From the NCBI GenBank assembly GCA_036867785.1, contig CP145417.1:434001-498000 (forward strand): a stretch of DNA of 64,000 nt, read 5' to 3'. The DNA comes from Plasmodiophora brassicae. Lineage: Eukaryota. Position numbers and translations under genes: made by a program. Below the pieces are notes generated by a model. That model searched no databases. It was not told the origin of the DNA and saw nothing but the letters and a program-made list of their open reading frames with translations. Below are positions 2,150 to 41,409 of the stretch, piece after piece (within the stretch, counting starts at the first letter, position 1; each line of letters starts with the position of its first letter).

Positions 2150-3867
2150 AGATCATGTGTGACGCTTCAGGACCCGTCGGTTTCGCCCGGTGCAGGGCCA
2201 TACGCATCGACCCAGCCGTGCGTCTCGAAGCGTTGCAGGCAGCGGTTCTCGTAGACCTTATCACTCGCCTTACCCAGGCCCGCGAACGCCATGTACTCCT
2301 ATAGAGACACATTATCATAAGCAGGCCAGCATCGGTACGCGGCTGCCGATGTCACCTGTAGCGGGCGAACGTTGCCCATGCCGAGGCCGTCCTCAATCCC
2401 TCTCAAGTCGACGTCCATATCGTCAGCCAGCGCAAGGCCCAGAATGTACCGGGCGCGAGCCTCGGCTCCGCTGGCGTCGACCCCCATTCTATCGGATCAG
2501 CTCGACTGAGACCGTCGCCCATCCGACCAACAAGCGTCGACTCCGACCCGTTCTGCGCGTGGTCGTCGTAGATGTTCTTGTCGCGACCGCCGTACACGTG
2601 GCTAAGCACGTTCTGGGCAGGCGCGTACATATCGTACCCGGACGTGTACAATCGTGCTGCGATGAGCACCTGCACTGCACAGTCAGACGTTCGGTTCGCA
2701 ACCGCTCCAACGCGCGCCGACACACTCACACACCTCCTCACCATGGAACAGGTACGGGAGGAACGGGTCGAACGGCACGTCCCGCAGGAACGAACTGTGC
2801 AGGAAGAACAGCCCGCCGCCGATGAACGCGGACGAGCAGGTCCCCCTCGGGCGGGTTCGCAGGTGCGGCGACCAGTTCGGCTCCTGGCAGTAATCCTGCA
2901 CAGACGACGTCAGTTGCGGCACCAAGACATGGACCCCTGGTGCGATCTACCTGAGCCAGGACGAACAGGCCAGGTGGGGACTGCTCGTGGTCCTCTGCTT
3001 TACAGATCCAGGTGACGGGCGCGTCCTTGTGGAGTTCCCCAGCGTCTCCAGGTGGATACTACACCGCACCGTTATCGATGGTGTACGCGCATGCACAGCA
3101 ACCCGGTTGATTACGTGGCTGATGACCGCCTTGGACGGGTTCGGCAGCTGGCGAATGTTGTCGATGAGGATGCGGTCCCACCCGTCGCGGAACGTGCTGT
3201 GAGCGTCGATCATCAGGAAGAAGCGCTCGCCGTCCCACAACTTGGACGCGATGTGCCGGGCGTGCGTCGGCCCGCGCGCGTTCACGTGCCGCATGCGCAC
3301 CAGGCGCACCCGCTTCCGGATGTCGTCCGGCAGACGTGCATGACATTGGATGTCGTCCGTGTGCGGGTCGTCGAGGTTCGTCTGGTCGACCAGGCCGACG
3401 AACACGCGATCCGGCCGAGACGCCGCCGTCATCATCGTCTGGATCGTGCCCGGGCACGCGTCGTCCCGATAGGTGGCGATCGACACGAAGATCGTGTCGT
3501 CGTCATCAATGTCGACCGAGTTGAGCCGGGTGCGGTACTCGGCAACGGTCTCGTTCAGGAACGGGGCGTTCTGCTCGTCGTAGATGAACCGGTCCGACGT
3601 GAGGACCTGGGGTTGTCGTGGCGACGTCCCCGAATTCGTCACCGCGAGCATGACGAGAACCACGGTCGACCAGGCAATGGTCAGCGCCGCTCCCGCACCA
3701 CGACAACGTCGCCTGCGACGACGTTCGCTGTCGGCACGAGACGCCCAGGCCGGCGTCGGCAACGAGGAGCGACGCCGATGCAGCATCTTGGAGGATATCC
3801 GAGCGATCGGATCGCGCGTACCAACCGTTGCACCACCAGGCGTTTGTTCTGGAAGACGGAACGCCAT
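2150..3867 (-). CDS. GT60-family N-acetylglucosaminyltransferase (Skp1-hydroxyproline GlcNAc-transferase-like), type II membrane protein, multi-exon
   Basis: TIFVSIATYRD, ARGPTHARH, FLMIDAHSTF, VPFDPFLPYLFHGEE and ARLYTSGYDMYAP motifs; N-terminal TM segment (ALTIAWSTVVLVMLAV). Ends approximate. Confidence 0.88.
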
Positions 3868-5078
3868 CGACAGGGGGCAACAGTCACACCGTCTCTGCAA
3901 CAGCACTGGGACGACGACGGCGTCCCGGGACAGGGGCGATAGGCACCTCCATCTTGGCGGATGCACGTGCCAGGATCCATGCTGGGCGTCGACGACTTGG
4001 GTGGGCCTGGGGTCATCCGTTCCTGGAGCAGTTTGGAGATTTAGAGAGAACCCTCGTGCTGACGTTGCGGCTTCCAGAATGACGTTTGTAATCGTTGCGC
4101 GATTTGGGAGGTTTGCAGAGGAATGGGAAAGTGTGCACCAGACACGAGAACCAAGACGGACGTCACCGACCTGGCTGGCTCGTTCGGGGTTCGACCATCA
4201 CATTCAGGATGCCGATGCGACAATCACCTGTGTTGATTTCGAGTCGGTAGAGGAGTTGTTTCCGAAGTTTGGAGAAAGGCTGGGGGTTTCGTTCGGAAAA
4301 GAATGTCGTTTGGGAGACCCTGCAAGCCGCGCAAGACCTGGGTCGAAACCCAAGCGGAAAGCTCGACAGCCGAAATCGTCTACCTAAATAGTTCCATCGG
4401 ATGAAAAGCGACATCTTCTGTAAAGAACAAGCTATAATGATGGATCGATACCCGATCGGGCAAAGGAGATTAACAGTAAGGTCCATGGAAAGTGACCGTC
4501 AGAGCGTTGTCTGCAGAGGTACGGGCGTCAGAAACCCAAAGAGCCTTGGTCAAGAGGCATTGATCCGGCAGTACGTATCCGATAACGGCACGTAACAAGG
4601 AAGGTCATCTCGGATACCAGACCTACCGTCGGTTCAACTGACCAAAGGTAGCCGGCAGTGATATTGTGGTGCAGCGTTCACAAGATGCCCAGTTTGCGGC
4701 CGCCACCCGCACACAACACGTCGACAACTTCGCGGACTTGCTTGAAATAGAAGACGGCATGGTTGAGGACGGGTTTCGAACGACATACACTGTCCCAAAT
4801 GAAGCTCACCGGCACTTCTCGGTTCACTAAGTGGGAATACAATTGGACGAAAATATCCCCTCACCTTCAACCGTGTTCGGATCCGTCACGGGCCATGCGG
4901 TGCGTCCCAGTACACGCGCGGCAGAGACTGGCACGTTATGACAGGACAAGTTTACCCAACCACACGGGTTGACCCATTGAGGTCGACCAGATAGTTTCAT
5001 GGAATACGCCGCGATGGAGCCCTTGTCTGAATCACGGGTTAGGTACGGGCGCCACCTGCGCGAATCGATGCTTCAGCC

Positions 5079-5086
5079 TATAAATA
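5079..5086 (+). promoter_or_regulatory. TATA box of effector-like paralogue 1
   Basis: TATAAATA about 120 nt upstream of ATG 5205; same motif at the equivalent position in paralogue 2. Confidence 0.6.
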
Positions 5087-5204
5087 GGTACCTCCGGGTG
5101 CTGGGACTTGCGGAGTTTACGGGCGACGTCTCTAGCCGCGGCGGCCGACCACAGTGACTCGTCGGCTGCCCGCTGGAGCCACCTTCGAAACCTCGTTGCC
5201 GGCA

Positions 5205-7109
5205 ATGCCTTCCCTCCATGTATTACTGTTCGCATGCGCGACGAGTTATGCGCTGGCCGTTGATCTTCGTGTCATGCCGACGGATCGAGAGATGCCGCCA
5301 AGGATGACGCCGGAAGAGGCCGACCGTGCCATCGCCGCGCTATCCGCTCTTGGGTTGTCGTCGAGGTTGGCGTGTCCATTGGCGGAGCAGCTGTCGAACA
5401 AGATGGTGACACTGGCGGATGGATATACCTATGATCTGAATCACGTTCTCGCGTCCTGCCGCAATGCGGACACTCTGAAGTCGCCCCATTACCAACACCT
5501 GACGATCCCCACAATCCTCGCGGTTGCATTCGTGAACCTGGATTTGATGGACATCGTCAAGAATGCTGAGATGATCGAACAGAGCGTTTCAGGTGGTGAG
5601 ATCCCAGTGACGGTTCGTCGATGGATCGGATCTCCACTGCCGCAGCCCATATGGATCTGTGCGGATGGACGGTCGCGTTTGATGACATCCTTCAAGCGTC
5701 CGTTCACGATTGAACAATTGGGGATGTTTCTGGCTCTCGACAATGGGGAATTCTGCTTCCGGAACATCCGACTCGAACAAGTCGTCGACGAGATCTGTCG
5801 ACGTGTGGATTGTGGGAGGGGTTGGGCTCAGCGTATACGCGGGACCTCGGTGAGGATGGATACCGCCCATGTGGAGCCTGACGCTCAGTCGCTTTCTATT
5901 TCAAATCTGCTTTCGCCAAGTACGGCAGCGTCTAGCAGCCGTCCTTCTGTCGCGAATCCGCACCGGCAGTCTATTGACACATCCAGCACCGGGACGTCTA
6001 CCGCGGTTCATTCCCCGTTAAATATCGCGGCTCATTCCCCTACAAGTACCGCGAGATCGAGCAACGGAAGGTCTCCGGTCTCGAATCATCAACAGTCGAA
6101 TGCTCTGGTGTCTCCTTTCAGGATTGATGACATTGTCTCCGCTGCTTGGGCCAACATCGCCGATGCCATCCCGTGGCCAAGTGAATCTGAAATGCAGCCT
6201 GCCCCATCGTTGCCTTCTGAAATATCGTCCGCTTGGGCCGCAACGATAGCATATACTCGTGCTCTTCATAAGCAATCGTTTTGGGATCGGGACCAGCTCT
6301 GTTCGTCGTCAAATTCCAACTTTTATGCTGCCCTGTTCTGGGCGGATCATTACTGCAAAAGTACCCCCTTCAAACCGGCCGACATGGAGCTGCCGCCCAA
6401 ACCTACGAATTCGGGCGACATGAGAGGCTGGCAGGCCGGCTGTCTTCGTTTCTTCCAAGCAGCGGAAGACATCGTCGTCAACTCGATTATAGAGAAGCAA
6501 CGCAAGCCTAATGCCGTCGCCCCGGGCCATTATAGTCGACCTGTGTGCCGTCATGCTCGAGCTCTACAAAGGATGGTGACACGGATGGGTCTGGTCCCGT
6601 CTAAGAAGCGTAAGAGCACTACGTGGTCGGACGACACCGCTGATACCATTCCATGGCCCGGTGCGTCGAAAATCAAGCCTCCCCCTTCACTGCCCTACTC
6701 AATTTCGTCCGCTTGGGCTGCAACGATCGCGTATACGCGCTCCCTAGACGACCGCAAAGAATGGCAGTGGGAAGGTCTCACAGAGACCGACGCGAACGCC
6801 ATCTACGATGCGCTGTTCTGGGTCCGTCAGTACACTACTGAGTGGGAACCGCCCGGAATGTCGTTGCCGCCGAAGCCTGCCAGCAGCGGCGGTTTCAGAG
6901 AGTGGCAGGCCAGCTGTTATCGCTTCTTCAAGGCCGCCGAAGATCGCGTTGTCGAGTCCATTTCAGAAAAACAAAAGGACGTCGCTGACGACGCCAAAGG
7001 CTCTGCGAGAATCATCCGTTTCTCAGATCCTTTGCGACGTCGCCTCAGGAACAGCGGTCTGCCCATTAACGCTGAACGCAAGCGGCGCAAGCTCATGAAG
7101 AGATCGTGA
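5205..7109 (+). CDS. Candidate secreted effector, paralogue 1: signal peptide + tandem degenerate U-box-like domains + two Trp-rich repeat domains + NLS-like patches
   Basis: Intronless ORF; MPSLHVLLFACATSYALA signal-like start; ACPL..LSNKMVTLADGYTYD resembles the U-box core; repeat core IPWP..AWAATIAYTR..ALFW..PPKP..WQA.C.RFF.AAED occurs twice; KKRK and RKRRK. Confidence 0.8.
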   Translation: MPSLHVLLFACATSYALAVDLRVMPTDREMPPRMTPEEADRAIAALSALGLSSRLACPLAEQLSNKMVTLADGYTYDLNHVLASCRNADTLKSPHYQHLTIPTILAVAFVNLDLMDIVKNAEMIEQSVSGGEIPVTVRRWIGSPLPQPIWICADGRSRLMTSFKRPFTIEQLGMFLALDNGEFCFRNIRLEQVVDEICRRVDCGRGWAQRIRGTSVRMDTAHVEPDAQSLSISNLLSPSTAASSSRPSVANPHRQSIDTSSTGTSTAVHSPLNIAAHSPTSTARSSNGRSPVSNHQQSNALVSPFRIDDIVSAAWANIADAIPWPSESEMQPAPSLPSEISSAWAATIAYTRALHKQSFWDRDQLCSSSNSNFYAALFWADHYCKSTPFKPADMELPPKPTNSGDMRGWQAGCLRFFQAAEDIVVNSIIEKQRKPNAVAPGHYSRPVCRHARALQRMVTRMGLVPSKKRKSTTWSDDTADTIPWPGASKIKPPPSLPYSISSAWAATIAYTRSLDDRKEWQWEGLTETDANAIYDALFWVRQYTTEWEPPGMSLPPKPASSGGFREWQASCYRFFKAAEDRVVESISEKQKDVADDAKGSARIIRFSDPLRRRLRNSGLPINAERKRRKLMKRS

Positions 7110-28115: not shown

Positions 28116-28557
28116 ATGTCCTTCGCCGACGTTGACGATGTCGTGCCGGATGTCGCGCCGACCCGACGGACGCTGTACGTCGGTGGCTTGTCGATCGACG
28201 TGACCGAGGAGATTGTGCGGTCCGCGTTCCAGATATTCGGCGAGCTGGTCGACGTGACGATCCCGCCGCCCGTTGGCGGAATCGTGGAGAAGACGCGGCG
28301 GTTCGCGTTCGTCGAGTTCGAGGACCCCGAGGACGCCCTGTGTGCAAAGGACAACATGAACGATTCCGACCTATACGGCCGGATTATCAATGTTAAATAT
28401 GCATCCGATGAGCGACGAAGACAAGAAGAGAAGCCACGTCCAGGTTCGATCATGTCGTTCGCAATTGATCTCATCAGCACTCTGACGCGTTTCCTCAGTG
28501 TGGGCGCAAACCCCCTGCGATAGCAACCATGATGAACGAATGGACGATGCACAATGA
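28116..28557 (+). CDS. Single-RRM protein similar to the RRM of cyclophilin E (Cyp33)
   Basis: RNP2 LYVGGL, RNP1 RFAFVEF, AKDNMNDSDLYGRII; intron 28444-28498 gives RPVWA. Confidence 0.85.
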
Positions 28558-28598
28558 GAACACGCCGTCATTATTTTCTATACACGCGGGATATCTCA

Positions 28599-29759
28599 AT
28601 GGTGTCGATCGGAAGATATTCTGCGAAAGATCTATTCGGGACGTTCGTGGAAATGTTCCAGCGCCCATCAACGTCGTCAACCCCCGAGCCTCCGAAGGAT
28701 GCGCCCCCCAACAAGTCTCTTCAGATGGCCCTGTCTCAAATCGCGCAACGCCTGGACGCCTTGCTCGACGACGACAAAGTACAAGCCAGTGGGCGCGATG
28801 CCTGCCTGCTTCTGAAGGACACGCTCGGCGCCTTTCTTCATAGTGAAACTCGCAAGTCGCTGTCGCCATCGCCGTCTGCTGCCGGACCACAGCCTATCCG
28901 TAAGCTGGCCCTGCCTGCCGATGAGCCTTCATCTACGATGCCACGAAAGTCGCCGTCCCATGAAGCGGTGCCGGAGACGCCTCGTCGATCGCCAGCGCAC
29001 GTGGAGTACAACAACGACGGCGCCTTGGAAAATGCCCCAAAGGTCGACGTCGAACGCGCTGACAACAAGCGTGAGGGCGGCGTTCGGAGGACGGTGATGG
29101 ACTCTCTAGCCACGACGACGGACGCGGTCGATCGCACCTTGTCGCTGCTGAAGGACGACGACCTGGCGGAATGGTCGAGTCAGGGCCCGGTAGGTCGTGG
29201 CATGACCAGGGCCGGGTTCAAGATGCTGCTCGTGAACGAGGCCCTACACGACGGATTCGAGGTGTCCAACGACTTCCATTTGAAAGGGCAGCACATCGAC
29301 CTGGTCCTCCGCAAGACAATCAATGGGACACGTGTCCACGTCATCGTCATGGTGAAGTACATTCGTGCAGCGTTTATCAAGAGCGTCGACGGGCATTCGC
29401 TGGAAATGGACCCTAACAAACCGGTTGCATTCGCCAACCGCTACGATGCGCTCAACGACGTCGTCGGCCGCCTGAACAAGCTGGACGCGGCGAACCTGCC
29501 AGCGGTCACATACGTCGCGTCGGGCGCCAAGCCGTTCGAGACGGTCGAATGGCTGATCCAGGACACCGCCGAGCACGAGCTCATCCCGTATATGGAGGAG
29601 ATGATCGACGATCTCGACGGGCACCTGTTTGGCGTCGTCATCGTCGGTGCGGCCAGCCGTGTCGTCAAAGGGCCCATATACAGATGGCGCCCGGACCGCA
29701 ACCGATTCGCCTACCAGCGCTTCGACAGCAAGCACCCACGGGGCACTGCCGCAGATTAG
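28599..29759 (+). CDS. Hypothetical protein with C-terminal PD-(D/E)XK nuclease-like fold
   Basis: Intronless ORF of about 386 aa with host-like codon use; HIDLVLR...VIVMVKY resembles the D...ExK core, with E replaced by M. Confidence 0.6.
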   Translation: MVSIGRYSAKDLFGTFVEMFQRPSTSSTPEPPKDAPPNKSLQMALSQIAQRLDALLDDDKVQASGRDACLLLKDTLGAFLHSETRKSLSPSPSAAGPQPIRKLALPADEPSSTMPRKSPSHEAVPETPRRSPAHVEYNNDGALENAPKVDVERADNKREGGVRRTVMDSLATTTDAVDRTLSLLKDDDLAEWSSQGPVGRGMTRAGFKMLLVNEALHDGFEVSNDFHLKGQHIDLVLRKTINGTRVHVIVMVKYIRAAFIKSVDGHSLEMDPNKPVAFANRYDALNDVVGRLNKLDAANLPAVTYVASGAKPFETVEWLIQDTAEHELIPYMEEMIDDLDGHLFGVVIVGAASRVVKGPIYRWRPDRNRFAYQRFDSKHPRGTAAD

Positions 29760-30188
29760 CAGGGCGCCGACCCTGTGCGCCTCGTGCCGTTCGTGAATAC
29801 AGCAACCAGAGCGTGCGCTGTCCCGCAGACAACAGGGCCCGCCCAACGCTTCTCGTGTTCCCGTCCGGCGAACGCTGTCCGGGCAGCTGCTGCGTACCGC
29901 GAGCTGCAAATCAGCATGCCGCGACGATCTGTACAGTGTGGCAGGGAATGGCCGCCGTTGCGCAATTACGCACGAAGTAGTGGGCGTCGTGACTCGTGAC
30001 GTTCGGCGGCATTCTCGCCACAGTAGCCACAGGGGTGGTGGGCAGACTCCGTGGCGCGCGGAATGAAGGAGGAGGGGCAGCATCGGGCGACGTCGCCGAC
30101 ATCGTTCCCGGCGCTGTCCCGAGCGCAGACGGGCGTGCCGCAGGCGACGCCCGATCGTCCGGATTCGCGTCGGGCGGCCAGTGCGCCG

Positions 30189-30922
30189 ATGGGGTCGTCC
30201 GGCCCGTTCGACAATCTCGAGCGGCACTGCGGCAAGCCCGTCGAGATCACGCGATCGAACCCAGCCAGGTCGAAGATCACGGGAAGGGTCCTGTTTGCGG
30301 ACACGACCAATGGTACAATGGCGTTTCGGGCATGCTCTGCGGTCAGCTGACGCCGCCCAGGCATGATTGGGGTCGTCGAGGACGAGACTCTCCAGCTCCA
30401 CATCTACCATGTACATTCCCTTCTGCAGATCGACGTCATTGACGATAACCCGACAGACTGGACGCCTAGTGAATGCGCCGGTACGATCTCGGTCGATTCG
30501 GGTCTGGAGTGCCCAGATCTGACAACGCTCGAGCAGGTCTCGGTCTGGTGTCCGACCCGGCTGCCCTGAAATCTCGCCAGGTATCGGCGCTGGCCGCAAG
30601 GCAAGACGAAGCCTTGAAGAATGGCCCGCCAGGCACCTCCGCCGCTGTCCAGGCCCTGTTCGACACAATATCAAAGACAATGTCGTGCCGTTGGAAGGGA
30701 AACACGATCGTTGTCCACGACGTTTCGATTGAGAAGCCTTACCGGCAAGGCAACTGCAAAGGAGCCAACCAAACGTCATTGCTGCGCGTCCAGAAGATCG
30801 TTCGTGCCGTGCTGCGAGTCGCCTCCGAGTCCTGACTCTGAGCTCTGTAGGTGGGCGCATATTGGCAGAAGGCCGATTTCGACGCCGATGGTCCCGGCGA
30901 CGCCATGGATACCAGTCAATGA
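30189..30922 (+). CDS. LSM12: LSM12-like protein (Lsm domain + anticodon-binding domain), multi-exon
   Basis: ITGRVLFAD Lsm-like strand; QALFDTISKTMSCRWKGNTIVV..V.I.KPY...C..SLLRVQKI. Confidence 0.82.
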
Positions 30923-31020: not shown

Positions 31021-33321
31021 TTAGGCTGGCTGGGCCGGCGCCTTGTGGTTCACTGCGACGAGTCGCCGGAACTCGGATAGGTCATCGGCGATTGCGAAGT
31101 TGTTTGATCTGAGCTTACTGATGAAGAAGGTTGCCGGCAGCTTATAGAATAGGTTGTCTCGTAGCCAGACGAGGATCGGGTTGGATACTTGGCCGATGAT
31201 GCTCTGCATGTGGGACGACCTTGCCACGCCTTTGACGAACGCCATCCGTCTCTGCTCATACTGGTAGCGCGCTTCAATGTCTCCGTCGGCGTGCGACTCG
31301 TACTTGCCGATCCCGGTAGCCAGAATGAACGCATCCTCAATGGCCAGGCACGCTCCTTGGCCCATGTTAGGTGTTATCGGGTGCGCCGCGTCACCAACCA
31401 GGACAGAATGCAGTGACGACCATCGCGTTCCCGGATCGCGGTCGGTGATGCGGTGCGAGTACCGTTGCGAACCAGGTGTCTTATCGTACAGAACGCGTAA
31501 ATCGGCAGGCCAGCTCGCAGTGTGGGCGTCAGTGCCTTCATGGGCTACTTGCTTTACCCACCAGTATGCTGACGAAAGCGAGCTGCCGTCGTCGATGTAC
31601 CCGACACTGGATCGAAGGCCGGCGCCGTACAAGATCACCATTGTGCTCGGTGGTATTCCAGCCAGCAAGTTCTCAAACGCGTCTCGAAGCCCCGACGATG
31701 AATTCAAGTCCACGACGCCCCGATAGCACATTTCGCCGACGTACTTGGCGGGCGTAACCGAGTCGATAGTCGCACGCCGGACAGCGGAGCCGGTCCCGTC
31801 AGCACCAATTAGCAGACGAGAGTCAACGACGTCGTCATCTCCCGTCTTCAAATGCCGGATCTGGACGCGACCGTCGGGAAGAATGCCGACAAACTCCACG
31901 TTGTACTGGACGAGGTCTGACGGCAGCAGCGCCCGCAAGGCGTGGAGTAACGGCCGACGAGACACAAGCCGGAAACGCTCGCCTGTGCCTCGAACAACGG
32001 CGCTCATGTCGACTCGATTCAGCGTACTCGCATCTGACATCCGCCTCATGACGACCTTGTCGACGACGTGCGTGTGCGTGGTCCAGAATGAAGACGCGAC
32101 GCCCAGCGTTCTCAAAATATGAACAGCCGATGGCCACAAGGCAAGATCGGCGCCATCCTCTGCTTGGGACGCTGGCCGCCTTTCGTAGACGATACACGGT
32201 ATGCCCTGCTTGTGCAGCGTTATTGCTGTAACGAGCCCACCGATTCCCGCCCCTGCAATGACGACACGGCGAGTACGGTCAGGCTTTCGTGGGTCAACGT
32301 CACCGGCCTTCGGGAACGATTTCGCAGAGCGAACGAACTGGATGAAGAGAACCGCAACGATCAGGACATGCAGATCGACGACGCCGCGGTGTAACAGCCG
32401 ACGACACACGGTTTCGAACAGGAATGCCCAGACGGGGAGGGTGCAGTGCACCAGGCTGCGAGCGACAACGCTGTCGAACCGATACGGTCGGTGCCAAAGC
32501 ATCCGGCTGATCTCGATCGCCAATGGAGCGGAGAGCACGGCGAGCGCAAAGGACGCCGTTGTCGGAGCCAATGCGGCCATGCTCAGGTAGGCAAGCACCA
32601 GTGACGTCGAGTGTGCCACAGATGAGGCACGATCGCCGACAAGAACAGGAATGGTGACCTTGCCCGCAAGCCAGTCCGGTCGTCGATCGTTCAGGTTCAG
32701 GACGACAAACAGCGCGAACTTGATGAAGAACGACGGGACGATCAGGAACAGCAGCCGTCCCGCGATGCTGCTGAGATCTGATGTTTGCGTCCAAGCAGCA
32801 AACACGGGCAGCAGAACGTTCTGGACCAGGGCTGCGGTGACCTCGCCCAGCGCTCTGTGATTCAACATCAGCGGCGGCGACGAGTACTGGTGCGCAAGGG
32901 CGAGCATTGCTATTGCGAGTGGAGCGACTCGCGGTGGAAGGACGCACGCGATCAGCGCCGCACTGTAGATGGCGAAACCGGCGGCAATGTACAGGGATAT
33001 GATCGGGTCGACTTTGGAGGAAGGCGATGGGTCGGAAAGGACACGCGATCCTCCTGTCAACCTCGTCCCGTGCCGGTTGAGTCGATCCGACGACAGGTCG
33101 TAGAATTCGCCCGTGTAATGGGCGACCATCTGGCAGGAGAACACGAACATGTAGGCGAACAGGAGCATCTTCACGTCGACGGCGCCGGCATCGCCCACGC
33201 CAATGGCCACGCCGCACAGGTACGTCACGGCGCTGAACATGGTCATGTGCACCCGCCCTAGTCGAACCACGGACCAGAACCGGGCCGACGCTGACGGCAC
33301 GGGTCCCACGCCCACACCCAT
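31021..33321 (-). CDS. Fusion of UbiA/MenA-like prenyltransferase and FAD-dependent aromatic monooxygenase
   Basis: Single intronless ORF; multi-TM N-half with EFYD..SD, TGGSRVL, YSSPPL, LGE and NLND..PD..AGK.T; C-half with GAGIGGL, LIGADG and GDAAHPITPNMGQGACLAIEDA. Confidence 0.9.
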   Translation of the reverse strand: MGVGVGPVPSASARFWSVVRLGRVHMTMFSAVTYLCGVAIGVGDAGAVDVKMLLFAYMFVFSCQMVAHYTGEFYDLSSDRLNRHGTRLTGGSRVLSDPSPSSKVDPIISLYIAAGFAIYSAALIACVLPPRVAPLAIAMLALAHQYSSPPLMLNHRALGEVTAALVQNVLLPVFAAWTQTSDLSSIAGRLLFLIVPSFFIKFALFVVLNLNDRRPDWLAGKVTIPVLVGDRASSVAHSTSLVLAYLSMAALAPTTASFALAVLSAPLAIEISRMLWHRPYRFDSVVARSLVHCTLPVWAFLFETVCRRLLHRGVVDLHVLIVAVLFIQFVRSAKSFPKAGDVDPRKPDRTRRVVIAGAGIGGLVTAITLHKQGIPCIVYERRPASQAEDGADLALWPSAVHILRTLGVASSFWTTHTHVVDKVVMRRMSDASTLNRVDMSAVVRGTGERFRLVSRRPLLHALRALLPSDLVQYNVEFVGILPDGRVQIRHLKTGDDDVVDSRLLIGADGTGSAVRRATIDSVTPAKYVGEMCYRGVVDLNSSSGLRDAFENLLAGIPPSTMVILYGAGLRSSVGYIDDGSSLSSAYWWVKQVAHEGTDAHTASWPADLRVLYDKTPGSQRYSHRITDRDPGTRWSSLHSVLVGDAAHPITPNMGQGACLAIEDAFILATGIGKYESHADGDIEARYQYEQRRMAFVKGVARSSHMQSIIGQVSNPILVWLRDNLFYKLPATFFISKLRSNNFAIADDLSEFRRLVAVNHKAPAQPA

Positions 33322-33791
33322 CGCGGCGACAACCGCCAAATTGTCCCGCCCCACTCCGACGGTAGTGACGTCCAGACCTGAACGCCAAGTACGTCGGACG
33401 CGTCGATTCGATCGCAGTCGGGGACCGATTTTCGTCGCGGACCCCAGACTCGTTTTGGCGAAGGCCCGAACGAATCGCCAACAACGGCGTAGCGACGACG
33501 ACCCCGATACGGTTGGCTAGTACCACCCAGCGATGCGCGACGACGACGACGAACCTGGGCAGCATCACTGTCGCCGATGCAGGTCGATCGAACGATACGA
33601 TGACACCCTACGATTTATTAGTACCGGGCAGTAGAGGGGTTGCACGAGCCCCAGTTTATCCCGGTGCGTCCCTCGAATCGCATTGCCCATTGCAAAACTG
33701 TCAACGTCGGCCACACTAAGCTACGGTTCGAGTATGAAAGGTCGGGGATGGGGAACAAGGCGGGGTGGTGCATTCGTCATTCTATGGACAG

Positions 33792-35406
33792 TTAAGCGGC
33801 AGATGGACTGGGTGCCCGCTGAAGCTCTGTGAGGATAACGGCGTACACGGCGGTGGCATCGACGACCTTCGGCAGGCCAGCGAGGGAGTCCAAATCTGAC
33901 ACGATGAGAACAGGACGGACGGCGTCATCGATCCGGCCATGGGATCCAGCGATACGTCGGCAGGAGTCGTCGCCGACTGGGGTGGCGTTGATGAGGACGC
34001 GCAACCGGAAGACTTGCGAGAGGATCGCTTTCACGACCAGGTGGGCGTACCCGATCCACGAGCCAAACCAGCGCGGGCGCCAGGTCAGCATTTCGCACGG
34101 ATCGTATCCGGGCTTGTCGTGGATGGCGACGGTGCGCGCATAGTCGGGCGCGTCGGCATCGTTGAGCCAGAAGTAGTACGTGAACCACGCGTTACCCTCG
34201 GCCACGCAAACGAGTTCGCCAGCACGATGGACACTGAGTGCTGCGGCCGCCCACGTCGGCACGTCATCCCGATCGAACACGAACGCGATCCCCTTTGTGG
34301 ACTTCAGCAACCTCTTAACTGGATCCACGTCTTCCGCCTTGGCAACGTGCACAATGGAGACCTGGTGATCGGAATGTGCAAACGCGCGGGACGACCCATA
34401 GTCGAGAGTCAGCCCACCGCGCTCGGTGCGGGTGGCGACGTACCCGGCACGGTTCAGAACGCGATTGATGTGCACTGGATGGTTGACCGGGACGATGCCG
34501 TACTCGGAAAGGATTATGACTCGTGCCCCGTGATCCTCGTAGAACGTGACCAGGTCCCGCAGGACACCATCGATCTCGGCCAGGCTATCCAGTACCGACG
34601 GCGACGATGGGCCATCGCGTTGCAGGACGTAATCGAGGTGCGGTAGGTAGATGAAGCTCAATACGGGATCGAACTCGTCGTCGACCATCTTGGACGCATC
34701 GGCAATCCATTGCGAGCTTGCAATGCCGGCCAATGGCCCCCAGAAACGATGCAACGGGAACCGCCCCAGCCTAGATTGCAGAGAATCGCGCAACGCGGCC
34801 GGCTTCGTCCAGATGTCAGGAAGCTTGCGCCCATCAGACAGGTACTAAACGGGTCGTCAGTCTCGAAACCGTGGAGCAACAACGGGGACGACTCGGAACC
34901 TGTGGGCGCGGCACGACCGCAACGTCGAGTGCATCTGTTCGTGACGTTCATTCAGGCACGTAAAGTCATTGGCAGTGCACGCAGGCATACCATCGTGCAT
35001 GCAATGCCATCCACAATTGCTAAACGTGACCGCCGTCGGGTCGATGGCCTTGACCGTATCGAAGATTCGCTGGCCGCGAACCAGCGCCCGGCTCTGATGC
35101 CAGTTACGAACCTCCTTCAGAACGGGATCGTAGAACCCGTTGGCCGTTATCGAATGCTCCGCAGGGGACGCCCCTGTGAGATACTGCAACAGGCAACCGG
35201 TTAGCGCCAGACACCTCGAGGGTTCGCCTTGGTGCGCCCCGAACCGTAGCCTGGGCGACGCAGGTCACAGCCGGGAACGCTGCCTCGATTTCCCGACAGG
35301 CGCTGCGTGCCTGGAACTCGTGCAGGAACGGCGTCTGGGTCGGCCCGATTAACGACTGGGTTAACCCGACCACATCAATGACGCAAGTCTTCGTCAGAAT
35401 CGGCAT
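33792..35406 (-). CDS. eboF: EboF-like alkaline phosphatase/nucleotide pyrophosphatase superfamily protein, 4 exons, about 480 aa
   Basis: Exons 35406-35245, 35183-34991, 34934-34900 and 34844-33792 join to give VIDVVGLT, PAVTCVAQATYLTG, PRPQYLSDGRKLPDIWTKP, FPLHRFWGP, SSQWIA, YLPHLDY.LQR, LSEYGI, IHDKPGYDPCE and GSHGR. Confidence 0.85.
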
Positions 35407-35785
35407 CGGCGTTCGCAAACGTCGCCCCAAAACGTGGCCAGTTGCCCCGTGGCGACTTGCGCGTTTCAAGTCCGAAGAAGGGCGTAGCCAATGGCTGACC
35501 GTCCGCCCCGACTGCTGCGACGCCTCGGGACGGCGTTCGTGCAGTGCCCGACTGAGGTGGGGATGTCCGCTGCACGTCGTGCACGCGTTCGTGTCTCACG
35601 TGGGAAGTGCGGATGCGTGTGCAGGCGCAGGTGTACGGCGCATGCGTGCTCAAGAACCTCGACCGGTTGGAGAAGGGCGTCTGCGAGGACACGTTTCAGG
35701 CGCTGGCGCGTTGCGTTCGCCAGGCCGTTCAGCAGACGCGGTCGCGACGATGATGGATGTAACGGAATGTATTGGATCGGGGGTG

Positions 35786-37030
35786 CTATGTGGGCGGTGC
35801 TGCTGCGGTCAGGTATTGGGCAAGCCATTCTGGGATCCAGCGGCGCGATGGACTCCATGTGAACAAAGGCGATCGGGCGCTATCCGCATCGGACGCCTGC
35901 AAGACGCGCCGGGCGTCCGGCTCGCGGCTCCTTCCGTTCCATTCCATATGCTTCAGCAGGTCGGCGTACGTTTCACGTGCGGCACGAAGCGCCATCGATT
36001 CGGCCGCTGACAGAAACGGGAACTTTGCCAGTTTCGAGATCGCCGAACGCAGCAGCCCCTCGGACAGGATCGCTTCGCCGGCGTGCTTGTAGAACGCGGC
36101 CAGCAGTCGAAGGGATTCGACGTTTAGCACGTCGTGGTCTGGCAGTCCCTGCACGTGTCACGCGAATCAACACGAGCCGACATCGAATCGACGAGACGCG
36201 GGGTTACGGCCGCCTCGGACGCCGACAGGGCGTCCTTCAGCGTCTGCTGAGCAGCGGGGCTGGTGCCTTGTGCAGCGCCGAGGAGCTGACTCGCGGCAAC
36301 GAGCAGCGGCGACTTGCCCGGCTCCAATGCGGAACGCGCCTCAGCAAGGATCGGTTCAGCACCGAGTGGATCTCGCTCCATCATGATCCACCCGGTTACC
36401 AAACGAATCGCGCCTAACAACGCGGCACGTGGGCACAGGCCAATGTCAACCAACGCGACCCGCCATACCTTGGACGTCATCGGACGCACCGCGACCGGCA
36501 TCCAGCAAACCAGTCGGGTCGTTGGCAATGACGGCACGCACAGCAGCGGTACGAGCGCCCTCTAGGTTCAGTTCTCCCGCAGGATGACAGCTCCCGCGAT
36601 GGTTAGCAAGATGGCGCGCTGCCTGGATGGAGGGATGCCCCAGCTCCTCGATCGTTCGAAGACGGTCGCACTCGTCCTTGAACTGCCCTCGCTGCTGGTA
36701 GGCAAACGCGGCGCGTTCGACAATCGACGCCATCAGGGCCGGCATTCTTAACGGGCGAACGATATCGCAGGCGCGGTTCAGCCTCGATTCCACCTGCCCA
36801 TCGACGCCCAGGTGCACCCGTCGCCGCACCAAGTCGTCTGCCTCCACGACCTCGTCGATCGGCGGGCCGGCGCCCGCCTCCAGGGCCCCGCCATCGCCCC
36901 AGTCGAACGCGACGCCGTACGCGCTGTACCGACGGCGGCAGGAGCGACGACCGAACAGCCCCACTACGGACATGAGCGAAAATGGCACGATGCAGCAGGC
37001 GCTTCAGCGTCGCTGGCTACCTACCAGCAT
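35786..37030 (-). CDS. Alpha-helical (TPR-like) hypothetical protein, possibly mitochondrial, multi-exon
   Basis: Successive minus-strand ORFs joinable at GT-AG introns; Arg-rich start (GLFGRRSCRRRYS); helical Ala/Leu pattern. Confidence 0.55.
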
Positions 37031-37101
37031 CGCGGACACGAGCGATGCCGTCGCTTCAGCCCTATTGACTACCGACAGCGCGAGAGACGTTGACTTGAGG
37101 A

Positions 37102-38094
37102 TTACACCAGTGTCTTCGTGGCACTGGAATGCGTGGCACTGGAACGCGAGGCGCTGGCCGGGGAATGCATGGCACTGCGGGGCGAGGCAACCCCCGCGGG
37201 TAGCAAGGACAGCGGCGATGCGATCCACGGCGCGAGCACATTGGAGTCGTTCAGGCATAGGTGGACCCGCCACCACATGCGGTTGACGACGTCGTATGGG
37301 TCGTTGGGGTCGGACTGGGACGGGTTCGTGTCCCACGGTTTCTGGAGCACGTAGTGAATGTTGCGCACGTCGCTGATGTCCCAGAGGTCGGGGTGGGAGA
37401 CGATCAGGGTCTTGAGCGCGTTGTAGACGTACGGGAGCAGGAACGTGGATTCAGCAAAGTACTCGTTGAGGAAGTCCTGGTCTGCGAATGGGTACGACGA
37501 CCTGTCGGCAGCGGCAAGGGCAGCTGTCAGGCTGGTCAGCGTGTCGAGGGAGGGGCACAGGACGAGGAGCCCAGAGTTGAAGTACGACGCCAACGCGCCA
37601 CGCTTCGATGTGAACGCGCAGTTGGCGGGCACCCACGATTTCGGATACTGGGGCAGTCGGTTCTGGTTGCAGGTGCAGGCTGGGCACGCGGCCAAGTCGA
37701 CGTGACCGGGGACCAGGTCGAATACATCGTCCATGTGGCGTAACACGAGCATGTCGCTATCCAGGAAGCAGACCTTGTCGTAATCCACTAACGACCAGGC
37801 TTGCAGTTTCGTCCAGACTTCAGCGAACCTTTCAAACGCATAGTCCTTCCTCGAAGAAGTACTGGGACCGGGGTCGACTGGATCGACGTGTACAACTCGC
37901 ATGCCAGGAACGCCCGCGACAGATATCAGCGTATGCGAACTGACCGCTGACGTTACCATGGCCACAAGCGGGTACGCGGTCCCCGATGACATCAGGGATC
38001 GCCCAAGGGTCACTGTGCCAACGGCATACTGGTCGCGCGTCAACAGCGTTGCCCACGCTCGTCTCTCGCTCGATTCCTTCTTCCTCGACCCCAT
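37102..38094 (-). CDS. Glycosyltransferase family 8 (galactinol synthase/glycogenin-like)
   Basis: AWATLLT, WTKLQAWSL, FLDSDML (DxD), YFNSG, FADQDFLN, LPYVYNALK, IHYVLQKPW; intronless. Confidence 0.93.
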   Translation of the reverse strand: MGSRKKESSERRAWATLLTRDQYAVGTVTLGRSLMSSGTAYPLVAMVTSAVSSHTLISVAGVPGMRVVHVDPVDPGPSTSSRKDYAFERFAEVWTKLQAWSLVDYDKVCFLDSDMLVLRHMDDVFDLVPGHVDLAACPACTCNQNRLPQYPKSWVPANCAFTSKRGALASYFNSGLLVLCPSLDTLTSLTAALAAADRSSYPFADQDFLNEYFAESTFLLPYVYNALKTLIVSHPDLWDISDVRNIHYVLQKPWDTNPSQSDPNDPYDVVNRMWWRVHLCLNDSNVLAPWIASPLSLLPAGVASPRSAMHSPASASRSSATHSSATKTLV

Positions 38095-38488
38095 TCTCGG
38101 GATGTCGACTGGGCGGACTTGACGACCAAGAAGCAAATCACGTCGCGTCGAAAGTGTTAACTGTCCCAGGCAGACCTTGTTCTGGACCCCGGCTGCGACC
38201 CTTCGGGCGTTCGGCCACTAGCTCTGTGACGACCGAAAGACGCGCCGCGGACGGCTTATCTGTTACACAAGTCGGCCACTGCGAAATGCACAGCGCCTCT
38301 ACCCACTTCGTTCGGTTTTAATAAGCCGGAACCATCGGCTGAAAACGATTCGACTGTGGCGCTATTTTGGGGCAGCAGGGTCGCGGAACTCGGATACCTA
38401 AATTCGGGGGTCGACCTTTTCAGTCAACAGCCGATCCAGGGCGCTGGCAGTGAGTCGTCCAGAACACCGCGATCGCTTCACTGCAGTC

Positions 38489-39647
38489 ATGAAGCACGCG
38501 GTTCACGCGTTAGCGGTCATGCGTTTGCTCGTATTCGTCACGGGGCGTCTGGCGGCGTTCGATCCGGGCGACTGGATGCGCGACCTCCGTGAGGTGATCG
38601 GCCAGTTCCCGCTGACACGCGTCGCCATTCCCGGAAGCCACAACTCCGGATCGCATGCCGCCACATGGAAGAGCGCCCGATCCGATGATAGCGAGCTGCA
38701 TCCCGTGCTGCACAAAGTGGTACCTTTCGTCGTTGCCGATTGGGCTCGTGTACGTTCGACTGTGTCCGTTGGCGCCACCCGACCATACTGACATGTCGCA
38801 GTGTCAGCGAAACTCGATTCTCTTGCAGTTACTGAACGGCATTCGTTATCTGGATGTTCGCCTGCAGTATGCACCGGGTGGCAAATCGTCGTTGTGCCAC
38901 TCGGTCTGCTGCATGCCGCTGGCTGATTTCAACAGGGAGCTACGCGAGTTCGTCGACGGGCACGCCAGCGAAATTGTCATCGTCCACAGCCATCGCGGCA
39001 TATTCGGCCTGTCCGACAACCGTGACGAGGCGGCTGCCCAGCAGAACGAAGTCGTCCCTGCGGTGGTCGACGGCATTGGGCGCGAGCGAGTCGCGAACCG
39101 TCTGTTTACAGCCGGTTCCCTCGTCAATGCATTCATGGACGCCGGTGTCAACGTCGTCATGGTGTTCCCGGATGAGAGCGTCTCTCGCCGACACAACATA
39201 TGGGACGAATCACAGAGCCTAACGCGACACTGGCCGGCATCGGAGAACGTCCGCGACGTTCTCAACTTTGCCAAGGAGCTCTGGCGGAAGCGCGACAATT
39301 TCTCCAAGTTGCACGTTGCCGAACTTATCCTGTCCCCGAAGGACACGAGCATCGTTGCTGCCGCGGCCGCCGGTCTGGCAACCGGTGTACCTTTGGGGAT
39401 TGTCGGGTCATCCCTCTGCAAGGGCTTGGCAGACTACTACGTTCCGCAGACGATTATGGGATTCTGCAGACAGCTAACCGAATCTGTGCCCGACTTCCTT
39501 CACCACTGCTGGGTCACCAGCAGCGACGACATCTTCGAGAACATCAACATCATCATGATTGACGACTGCGACATGCAATCCGGGGCGATCATCAAACGCA
39601 TCGTTCAAGTCAACCTGGACAAGATCCCGTTGACGAATGGCCCATAG
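38489..39647 (+). CDS. Secreted PI-PLC X-domain protein (PLCXD-like)
   Basis: Signal-like start, WM....L..VAIPGSHNS, QLLNGIRYLDVR, EIVIV; one intron near 38750-38800. Confidence 0.88.
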
Positions 39648-39871
39648 GTCACCTCCACTTCATCGTCTAACGAAACTGCAGGCGATGGCTGCACGTGACA
39701 CCTGAGATCAGCCTCACAGCGGGCTCTCTACCTATTGCAACGAGGTTCTAGGGGCAGCTACACCCATTAAATCATGGTGTGCCTGTCAAGTACCCAGGCA
39801 GCGGTCGATCACGGGTACCGCCTAGCTCCTGTAGTGTAATAGCATCTCCTGCATTACACATCGTGCTCACC

Positions 39872-41409
39872 ATGGCCGGTGCCCTGGCGCCATGTGCGTT
39901 ACTCGCGCTGTGCGTTGCCGTCGTTGACGGCTCGGTGACGTTCCCATCGGCGGCCCCTGGCAGTCCACTCGCAGGTGTGCACTTGTACTCGGCAGCAATG
40001 ACATCGTTTATCGGGCCTCAGCCTGGAGATCCCGACAGCACCAGGACCGGTCCGGTCGTCATTTTCGACGGCGACTTATGCCAGCCGTCAACGATGCAGG
40101 CTCCAGGAAGCATCATCTTCATAACGACGGGTTCGGCAACGCGGGCCGCGTGCTCCTACGAGACCCGGTACCTCTCGTTATACGTCACTGGTGCCGCTGC
40201 TATACTTCGTAGGTGCTCGCGCGCATGTTGAGCCGCCTTGTTTTGAACATATGCCCTTTAGTGCCTGCGGTAGACAATGTTCCATCTGTGCAGATGTACA
40301 CGAACGACGGATCGCAAGGTGCCTACACGCGTCACCTTCCTACGCTGTTCCTTCACGTCGGGCCTAGCAATGAGGTGTACAACACAGTGGTATCCGCTGC
40401 TCCCGGGCAGAACGCCACCGTGTCGCCCGACGCCAACGTCTGGCAGGACACGTTCGCATCATGGTACTACCAGTTGTTCATTCGGATCCTGCCCAGTTTC
40501 GTCTTGATTGCATCGGGGCTGACCGCGTCTGTGTACTTGGCTGTCCACATGCGCTTCATGCGCGGCGAGTACGAAAGCACCTTTCCCGTGGCGCGCCGAT
40601 CGCTGTCAAGGTGGATGGCGTTCGCTCGGAAGTCAGCGGGGTTGCCGCACGCCGTCCTGGCCATCGAGGTGGCCACCGCCACCCTTTCCGGTGCCATTCT
40701 GGCGATCGACGGCTATTTCAGCACGCCGAACCTGCCGTTCCCTGTCCTTCAGTATTTCATCACGCTGCTGAGCGGGTGGAGCTTCGCGTCGTCCCTGCTC
40801 TCCGCATCGGTTTGGGTGCGCCACCTGTCGTGCATCGTCGATTCGAAGTCGCTGTTGACTCGCGTCGTCCGAGGCGACTACCTGTCCGTATTCGTCCTGC
40901 TGGCCGTCATCCCCATCATCGTCGACACAGCTGGTAGTGTCCTGTTTGCCATGTACCATGGGCAGCTGGCGGTGACAACGATCATCTCGGCACTTGGGTT
41001 CCTGCTCCAGCTGACAGTGGGCGTACACGTCCTGACGAGCGTCATGCATTACTACTGTACGGTCCGCAAGGTATTCGTGCAAACGACGCACGCTGCGTCT
41101 GATGCCGACGAAGGCATGGACGCAATTCTGCGCCGCCTGAGCGTCTGCGCCCTGGGCATGTCGCTCTCGATGATCCTGTTCTGCTTCGGGACCGCCCTGA
41201 TCGCGCTGTCGTCAGCGTCTCTGTACAGCCCGGCACGATGGACGGCCATCTGGTCGTTGATCTATAGCGGTCGGGCAGCGGATAGCGCGTTTCGTGTTGC
41301 GATGTTCAAGCCCCGGTCCGCCCAACCGTCGTTTAAACACAATGTCATTGCCGTTACGCCCGACACAAAGAAAACGTGGGCGTCACTCTCGACCCCTCTA
41401 CATCAGTAG
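39872..41409 (+). CDS. Signal peptide + extracellular domain + about 7 TM helices (GPCR-like membrane protein)
   Basis: Intron 40209-40261 joins two ORFs; about seven hydrophobic segments in the C-terminal 300 aa. Confidence 0.7.

Follow-up and report, generated by a model that had tools for sequence, protein, structure and literature searches.

Do five neighbouring genes of the clubroot parasite Plasmodiophora brassicae, among them a UbiA-flavin monooxygenase fusion and a gene for EboF, a protein of the bacterial ebo operon, form a biosynthetic cluster, and which of them belong to it? The genes occupy positions 31021-39647 of a 64,000-nt stretch of assembly GCA_036867785.1 (contig CP145417.1, positions 434,001 to 498,000; hereafter the window), on the contig designated C7 of a 25.3-Mb genome in 20 contigs, and their products match P. 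brassicae database entries at 98-100%. The original prediction, made from the sequence alone, had joined the fusion, EboF, a GT8 glycosyltransferase and a PI-PLC gene into a remodelled ebo-like pathway. All five genes, including a helical gene lying among them, were confirmed where and as it had described them, with gene models, Pfam matches and splice joints in agreement. We favour a smaller unit, at a probability of roughly 0.55: a small meroterpenoid module of eukaryotes with the fusion and EboF at its core and an ankyrin-JmjC (Ank-JmjC) 2-oxoglutarate oxygenase as its likely third member, the GT8, PI-PLC and helical genes being ordinary neighbours.

The fusion protein matches the Pfam families UbiA (E 4.8e-14) and FAD_binding_3 (E 1.9e-21), and its AlphaFold model (predicted local distance difference test, pLDDT, 87.8; predicted template modelling score, pTM, 0.87) comprises a helical membrane domain at residues ~11-334 and a group A flavin monooxygenase at ~347-750. 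Residues 11-309 match two archaeal UbiA-family structures (Z 22), while residues 347-749 match TrlE (Z 41.5; root-mean-square deviation 2.8 over 372 residues), HpxO (Z 39.1) and 3-hydroxybenzoate 6-hydroxylase (Z 38.7), with VibMO1 (Z 34.2) also among the fold matches. Both Asp-rich motifs are intact, as are the GxGxxG, DG and GD motifs, which we take to be those of group A monooxygenases. A Pfam score above the cut-off, the fold and the two Asp-rich motifs thus place one half in the UbiA superfamily, and the motifs together with a PHBH-type fold place the other among the group A flavoprotein monooxygenases. By sequence, the UbiA domain appears to belong to the MenA/UBIAD1 branch: NCBIfam matches it best to MenA models (E 4e-14), and among PDB sequences UBIAD1 comes closest (E 0.018). 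The domain lies far below the cut-offs for MenA proper, however (52.4 versus 555 bits, and 18.9 versus 102 for TIGR00751), and differs from MenA and UBIAD1 in that its first Asp-rich motif reads HxxGExxDxxxD. The original caveat that the domain looked MenA-like rather than EboC-like was therefore well founded. The other UbiA genes of the genome, from a reading of their frames, resemble COQ2 and COX10. The nearest solved relatives of the monooxygenase half by sequence and fold (NicC, HpxO, TrlE, 3-hydroxybenzoate 6-hydroxylase, VibMO1 and salicylate hydroxylase) are aromatic hydroxylases, several of them decarboxylative, and are 20-24% identical to the fusion.

Relatives of the fusion were collected by a single-protein search, which returned 16 full-length members among 8000 scored candidates, and the set was extended by a profile of the UbiA part run against 1.84 billion representatives (best 150) and by a search among longer proteins. 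The UbiA phylogeny, one of the checks proposed with the original prediction, covered 140 of 157 domains (17 short matches were left out) and gave the fusion domains a 39-row clade of their own (Shimodaira-Hasegawa-like approximate likelihood ratio test, SH-aLRT, 86); a tree of the monooxygenase half recovered several of the same subgroups, namely the PX algae, the blastoclads and the amoebozoan group. Among 35 members of at least 720 aa, the two Asp-rich motifs are kept in 33 and 35, GxGxxG in 34, and DG and GD in all. The species-named members, 12 of 12, are eukaryotes: the ochrophytes Tribonema minus, Choristocarpus tenellus, Phaeothamnion confervicola and Chrysoparadoxa australica (partial); the blastoclads Catenaria anguillulae, Blastocladiella emersonii, Paraphysoderma sedebokerense and Sorochytrium milnesiophthora; and P. 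brassicae, Rhodosorus marinus, Hyaloraphidium curvatum and Planoprotostelium fungivorum. Accessions are NDN08_002273 for R. marinus, KAG5181541 for T. minus, ORZ41658 for Catenaria, H9P43_000928 for Blastocladiella and PROFUN_10845 for Planoprotostelium; those of EboF include CBJ28409 from Ectocarpus and XP_005711005 from Chondrus. Non-plastid EboF has a patchy distribution among eukaryotes, and the groups represented in the fusion family (Phytomyxea, PX ochrophytes, one red alga, blastoclads, Hyaloraphidium and one amoebozoan) overlap it: EboF is on record for the same species in P. brassicae, R. marinus, P. confervicola and H. curvatum, and at class level for the brown and yellow-green algal carriers.

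Outside eukaryotes no fusion was recovered. A prokaryotic genome scan with the alignment of fusion UbiA domains gave 59 pattern matches, none confirmed; viral contigs gave 38 matches to the UbiA alignment and 12 to EboF, again none confirmed; the 401 genomes of the phylum of one bacterial genome (G039) held no fusion, four having a related UbiA and one a monooxygenase at E <= 1e-35, in different genomes; and none of the sampled bacterial UbiA relatives is fused to a monooxygenase. Nearest to the fusion clade, with weak support, stand the stand-alone UbiA proteins P0188-P0220, among which a 101-aa fragment (P0212) is 60% identical to the P. brassicae UbiA domain. The literature searched, which takes in few subscription journals, turned up no account of either the fusion or its association with EboF. 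We read the protein, as the best available account, as a new eukaryotic form of the UbiA-plus-monooxygenase meroterpenoid logic, in one polypeptide and coupled to an Ebo protein.

The second core gene is, as far as sequence can tell, a genuine EboF, as originally proposed. Its model is identical to database protein P0017, it is single copy in the genome, and its product, of the alkaline-phosphatase/NPP superfamily, is 46% identical over 465 aa to the EboF of a complete bacterial eboA-F operon that served as control. The invariant columns T48, H199, D201, Q205, S243-E244-Y245 and H432 are kept. Q205 and E244-Y245 presumably stand where typical NPP enzymes have metal ligands, so the chemistry of EboF may not be ordinary phosphodiester hydrolysis; no solved relative was found by sequence. 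The gene product (CEO97977) is given as EboF in Table S3 of Yurchenko et al. 2016 (PMC5133447), whose accessible parts record an unaccompanied EboF among red algae (florideophytes, bangiophytes and stylonematophytes), in PX-clade ochrophytes and in P. brassicae, judge eukaryotic EboF independent of other Ebo proteins (section 3.5), and list prenyl-diphosphate phosphatase among the options for its activity. Ours is the same gene in the same clade with Stylonematophyceae; the neighbouring fusion and its recurrence go unmentioned in sections 3.5 and 3.7 of that paper.

What connects EboF to the fusion is linkage. In the window EboF lies upstream, with 470 bp between its stop codon and the ATG of the fusion. 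One metagenome scan returned eight loci, five of eukaryote type, of which one (L003) has long flanks. This intron-poor 20.8-kb sequence, probably from a red alga to judge by the tree position of its fusion, carries EboF (3401-4801), an Ank-JmjC gene (4824-6257) and the UbiA fusion (from ~10001), so that 5.2 kb separate EboF from the fusion, with the Ank-JmjC gene in between. Random placement of a single-copy gene in genomes assumed to measure 25-100 Mb would put EboF within 10 kb on either side with a chance of 2e-4 to 8e-4. The expectation that EboF travels with a UbiA-family prenyltransferase is supported by this second pair and by the overlap in named taxa between the fusion family and eukaryotic EboF; gene order is otherwise not common to the window and L003. 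As for the wider claim that the genes are grouped beyond chance, the answer differs by gene: the fusion and EboF recur in L003, the GT8, PLC and helical genes do not.

The Ank-JmjC gene is a stronger third candidate than any the original prediction had named, and had been overlooked there. In a further metagenomic locus (L002), whose fusion groups with the amoebozoan one, an Ank-JmjC gene 38% identical to the L003 copy stands head-to-head with the fusion, and P. brassicae has an orthologue (41-45% identity) with an HxD...H motif at G000:C7:1187496-1188658 (L017:1457-2667). Two other features of L003 may be recorded here. Upstream of its EboF lies a PSD/PSDC decarboxylase gene (L003:475-1992) with guanine-plus-cytosine (GC) content below that of its neighbours; the PSD-like matches to it in P. 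brassicae (27-32%) lie on other contigs. Downstream of its fusion, in which the monooxygenase half is truncated, L003:20055-20813 holds a stand-alone monooxygenase paralogue, possibly the outcome of a secondary split.

The EboF phylogeny, also proposed as a check, gave a divided answer. P. brassicae forms a clade with Spongospora, Bangiopsis and Hyaloraphidium, whereas in three trees, including maximum likelihood, the L003 EboF falls outside it among bacterial sequences, as florideophyte EboF does in the accessible part of PMC5133447. A single origin of the L003 EboF and the P. brassicae clade was not rejected by the approximately unbiased (AU) test (p 0.21), so convergent recruitment and an ancient shared linkage are both possible.

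Could the locus nevertheless be a form of the ebo pathway? In the accessible part of preprint 10.64898/2026.05.21.724671, the bacterial ebo operon makes thallusin, with eboB, eboC, eboE and eboF each essential; EboC farnesylates trihydroxyquinaldate, EboF is given no assigned reaction, EboD is dispensable in Actinomycetota, and actinobacterial ebo clusters use inositol genes. Searches of the P. brassicae genome for the remaining ebo genes ran exon by exon, so that a heavily interrupted gene could escape them. EboC (NF035940) had no match anywhere in the genome; a control EboC scores 425 bits on that model, to which the UbiA domain of the fusion has no match, and BLASTP between the two gives E 6.3. 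EboE (NF035939, a model that scores 500 bits on a true EboE) and EboA (NF035938) gave no candidates in the genome, although for EboA no control genome matched in the search either, even though the model recognises a true EboA. The TatD-like EboB had no match in the genome with one bacterial query and without a genome-level control. For the sugar-phosphate cyclase EboD, the sole PF01761 match in the genome falls on the DHQS domain within an AROM-type gene, where an EPSP-synthase-like frame follows. EboA, EboB, EboC and EboE were thus not found, the only DHQS match is AROM and the UbiA domain is not EboC. We therefore place the locus outside the ebo family, and the proposed ebo-like pathway, remodelled to include a cyclitol or glycosyl portion, is not supported. 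What is shared with the operon (eboA-F; thallusin/saccharoquinoline) is a true EboF adjoining a UbiA-family prenyltransferase; what differs is that the latter is fused to a monooxygenase and that the genes are nuclear and bear introns. An HPPD gene of P. brassicae lies unlinked on C18 and is not diagnostic.

An indication of the pathway type comes from bacterial relatives of the UbiA domain. The query alignment comprised 17 stand-alone UbiA proteins: a myxobacterial/actinobacterial-type clade supplied 16, and the weakly placed group closest to the fusions supplied the other. In all, 120 bacterial relatives were confirmed, 80 were kept, and neighbours of ten types were scored within 8 kb. At least one type was present at 48 of the 80 loci and none at 32. 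HPPD was found at 34 loci, a polyprenyl synthase at 25, a squalene-hopene-cyclase-like gene at 16, an O-methyltransferase at 14, a flavin adenine dinucleotide (FAD) monooxygenase of another subfamily at 13, and a sugar-phosphate cyclase and a Pyr4-like cyclase at 8 each. HPPD makes homogentisate, and the HPPD, polyprenyl synthase and cyclase neighbours indicate that this UbiA branch serves meroterpenoid pathways. The subfamily is related to that of the fusion, which is 27% identical to a Flexithrix member (E 5e-27); the actinobacterial and myxobacterial clusters differ in carrying HPPD, polyprenyl synthase or terpene cyclases without EboF, and in that their UbiA is unfused. EboF occurs somewhere in 47 of the 80 genomes, which are mostly actinomycetes; as that count has no control set, we conclude nothing from it.

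Two recurrent arrangements among these bacterial loci deserve mention in their own right. HPPD, UbiA, polyprenyl synthase, squalene-hopene-cyclase-like gene and FAD monooxygenase stand together in 13 of the 80 (L030, L033, L040, L041, L043, L055, L056, L079, L080, L084, L086, L091 and L100), possibly a homogentisate-based meroterpenoid cluster type, on which a literature search turned up nothing specific. Seven others (L070, L072, L073, L081, L082, L083 and L098) combine a sugar-phosphate cyclase, UbiA and a Pyr4-like membrane cyclase. From gene content and the accessible text of PMC5133447 section 3.7, we infer that the sugar-phosphate-cyclase type is BE-40644-like; if so, the seven-locus set holds a candidate for the terpene cyclase, the BE-40644 cluster being without one in the accessible part of preprint 10.64898/2026.05.21.724671.

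The recurring pairing of fusion and EboF points to a small-molecule pathway in scattered algae, water fungi and amoebae. In such a pathway the monooxygenase half would turn a phenolic acid into a para-hydroquinone by hydroxylation, perhaps releasing CO2 in the process, while a prenyl chain would be added at the membrane by the MenA-type domain, hydroxylation and prenylation occurring in either order; the resulting prenyl-hydroquinone or quinone might be further oxidised by the JmjC enzyme. EboF would most likely be an accessory on the prenylation arm, acting on the donor or the prenylated product and not in a cyclitol step, because only one kind of partner accompanies EboF in both settings, the operon of bacteria and the module of eukaryotes, namely a UbiA prenyltransferase, and the two enzymes are not orthologous. 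Fungi offer a chemical parallel: in the accessible passages of PMC12720273, pairs of UbiA and FAD monooxygenase make prenylhydroquinones, often followed by cupin oxidases. These pathways (PanE with PanI, VibMO1; AtyB with AtyG; BisJ with BisD) share with our locus a UbiA enzyme and a group A FAD monooxygenase, there oxidatively decarboxylating, but use separate genes in place of one polypeptide, whereas the prenyltransferase here is of the MenA branch, and the passages on the fungal clusters contain no EboF.

Several observations weigh against this module. EboF was found within 8 kb of none of the 80 bacterial UbiA relatives, which leaves its pairing with the fusion without bacterial precedent in this sample. 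Its linkage could be assessed in one of the five eukaryote-type metagenomic loci, the other four being too short, and in that one the fused monooxygenase half is the truncated one, with the paralogue 8.5 kb downstream (from ~20230). In Hyaloraphidium the fusion lies on a 255,021-bp contig and EboF on one of 607,112 bp, so that the pair linked in L003 is divided between contigs there. EboF is on record for just four of the 12 named fusion species, with none of the four blastoclads among them, and Spongospora has EboF, yet no named Spongospora fusion was found. The P. brassicae Ank-JmjC gene is on the same contig as the locus but 720 kb off, among unrelated genes, and in the Atlas the family has diatom-rich clusters as its neighbours (score 0.84, a lead only), so it may extend beyond the module. 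The substrate is not fixed, because identity to characterised monooxygenases is just ~20-24%, and the P. brassicae paper supplements searched for co-expression contained no rows for the locus gene ids. The weak point, in sum, is the small sample: EboF linkage has a single outside locus in its favour, JmjC linkage likewise, and there is one counter-example.

Some of this would also fit another account, possible though doubtful in our judgement, in which the fusion acts alone, for example on an antioxidant lipid or a minor quinone, and the adjoining EboF and JmjC genes are relics of co-transfer or lie there by chance. The unlinked fusion and EboF of Hyaloraphidium, the unlinked JmjC of P. brassicae, the single informative outside locus and the independence of EboF from other Ebo proteins stated in PMC5133447 section 3.5 all suit it, and the AU result (p 0.21) allows inherited synteny without shared function. 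Linkage nevertheless occurs in three organisms whose fusions sit in different parts of the UbiA tree, the window and L003 otherwise differ in gene order, and the maximum-likelihood placement of the L003 EboF among bacteria would, if right, make the pairing convergent. We think it unlikely that the locus runs a thallusin- or saccharoquinoline-like hydroxyquinoline route, with EboF performing its bacterial step, the MenA-type domain replacing EboC and the two oxygenases standing in for the cyclitol route of EboB, EboD and EboE by hydroxylating an aromatic ring that is already formed. Such a route would accord with the essential eboF and the farnesylated trihydroxyquinaldate of preprint 10.64898/2026.05.21.724671 (accessible part), with the conserved columns retained by P. 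brassicae EboF, with the N-heteroaromatic substrates of several of the nearest monooxygenases (NicC, HpxO, PhzS) and with the red and brown algae among the carriers; but eboB, eboC and eboE are essential in the same source and the genome searches recovered none of them, EboC and the UbiA domain of the fusion are not significantly similar, and HPPD at 34 of 80 bacterial relatives speaks for a benzoquinol head rather than a quinoline.

A more ambitious version of the module, which we rate as improbable, is a horizontally spread pathway of fusion, EboF and Ank-JmjC for a thallusin-like prenylated aromatic signal, carried by red, brown and yellow-green algae, a plant parasite, blastoclad fungi and amoebae, in which EboF was recruited more than once and acts on the prenylated product. 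EboF might then possibly take part in late cyclisation or oxidation steps, which in thallusin biosynthesis have no assigned enzyme; the sampled bacterial clusters with related UbiA have terpene cyclases and no EboF. The claim that fusion, EboF, GT8 and PI-PLC are one cluster, with a prenylated, glycosylated or inositol-linked product, now has very little in its favour: four co-oriented genes with short gaps, all transcribed, a GT8 with a single and distant other relative in the genome, and the inositol genes reported for actinobacterial ebo clusters in the accessible part of preprint 10.64898/2026.05.21.724671. Against it, homologues of the GT8, PI-PLC-X-like, helical and LSM12-like genes were not found in L003, a single locus whose flanks extend ~10 kb upstream of the fusion and ~9 kb downstream, nor were those of GT8 or the PI-PLC-X-like gene at the 80 bacterial loci; the PLC-like genes form a dispersed family; AROM is the only match to the sugar-phosphate-cyclase family; and the genome is gene-dense, with housekeeping genes directly adjoining the locus. 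No evidence for GT8 as a member of the module was found, and the proposed membership of GT8 and PI-PLC is not supported. The two- or three-gene module is thus the reading we retain.

Gene models for the locus are collected in the table below.

Features of the P. brassicae locus and its left-hand boundary (positions in the window)
Feature	Position	Strand	Gene model and annotation
LSM12-like housekeeping gene (anticodon-binding domain)	30063..30836	+	Pfam AD E 1.2e-18; convergent with fusion
UbiA-flavin monooxygenase fusion	33321..31021	-	766 aa, single exon; PBRA_006090 / CEO97976 via 98%-identical database match
EboF	35406..33792	-	480 aa; exons 35245-35406, 34991-35183, 34900-34934, 33792-34844; PBRA_006091 / CEO97977
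Helical, possibly TPR-like protein	36973..35786	-	357 aa, 3 exons; open model
GT8 glycosyltransferase (glycogenin/galactinol-synthase fold family)	38094..37102	-	330 aa, single exon; Pfam PF01501 E 2.2e-13
PI-PLC-X-like protein	38489..39647	+	368 aa; exons 38489-38749, 38802-39647; hydrophobic N-terminus

Transcript evidence came from assembled contigs of four runs from four studies, which are not recorded as RNA; the spliced joints in them nevertheless indicate transcripts. All three EboF introns are joined in four of four runs each, those of the helical gene in four and three, that of the PI-PLC-X-like gene in three, and those of the LSM12-like gene in all four, while the intronless fusion and GT8 genes are covered by run contigs. 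Among the pieces listed for all four runs, fusion and EboF are on separate contigs, which hints weakly that they do not share a transcript. Third-position GC is 0.71-0.78 in the locus genes and 0.72-0.80 in their neighbours, a resemblance from which we take the locus genes to be long-resident. In the interval separating the EboF start from the 3' end of the helical gene, a plus-strand GT..AG intron at 35557-35624 is joined in two of four runs; the EboF promoter thus has a spliced transcript, either antisense or divergent. The LSM12-like gene, which marks the module boundary, has an extra 3'-end intron (30800-30850), and because its contigs reach into the 3' end of the fusion gene converging on it, the LSM12-like and fusion transcripts may overlap. 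Across the fusion contig (30851-33443), runs X18 and X20 show 48 differences from the window and X6 and X16 none; these are two strain groups.

The three remaining genes show little that would bind them to the core. The best solved relatives of the GT8 protein are glycogenins. The PI-PLC-X assignment rests on the motifs GSHNS, RYLDVR and CHS, because Pfam gave E 0.1, and a single-sequence model of exon 2 was unusable (pLDDT 32). Paralogues with the same motifs lie at G000:C9:786388-787143, whose sole PDB match is a bacterial PI-PLC (E 0.88), and at C19:409677-410262, giving at least three dispersed copies; the gene is probably a bystander. A match of its exon 1 inside the L003 EboF (E 0.005) was rejected as spurious. 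The helical gene, too, is probably a bystander: it has no Pfam family, its one NCBIfam match (E 0.035) is spurious, and its Atlas neighbours, mostly TPR clusters (0.90, with low recognition), are a lead only. Farther out on the plus strand lie a 407-codon frame without a Pfam family (28536-29759) and a gene for a multi-pass membrane protein with no clear Pfam family (39752-41409), by eye like tandem genes in another sequence, L018.

EboF is essential for thallusin, an algal morphogen, and the lone eukaryotic EboF has stood unexplained since 2016; a different prenyltransferase as its eukaryotic partner would narrow its role to the prenylation arm. If the module is real, it would be a two- or three-gene system that could be rebuilt in yeast, a biosynthetic gene cluster in organisms (protists and algae) where such clusters are rare, and a candidate source of algal prenyl-hydroquinones. 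For the clubroot parasite itself it would mean a specialised metabolite whose genes are kept expressed.

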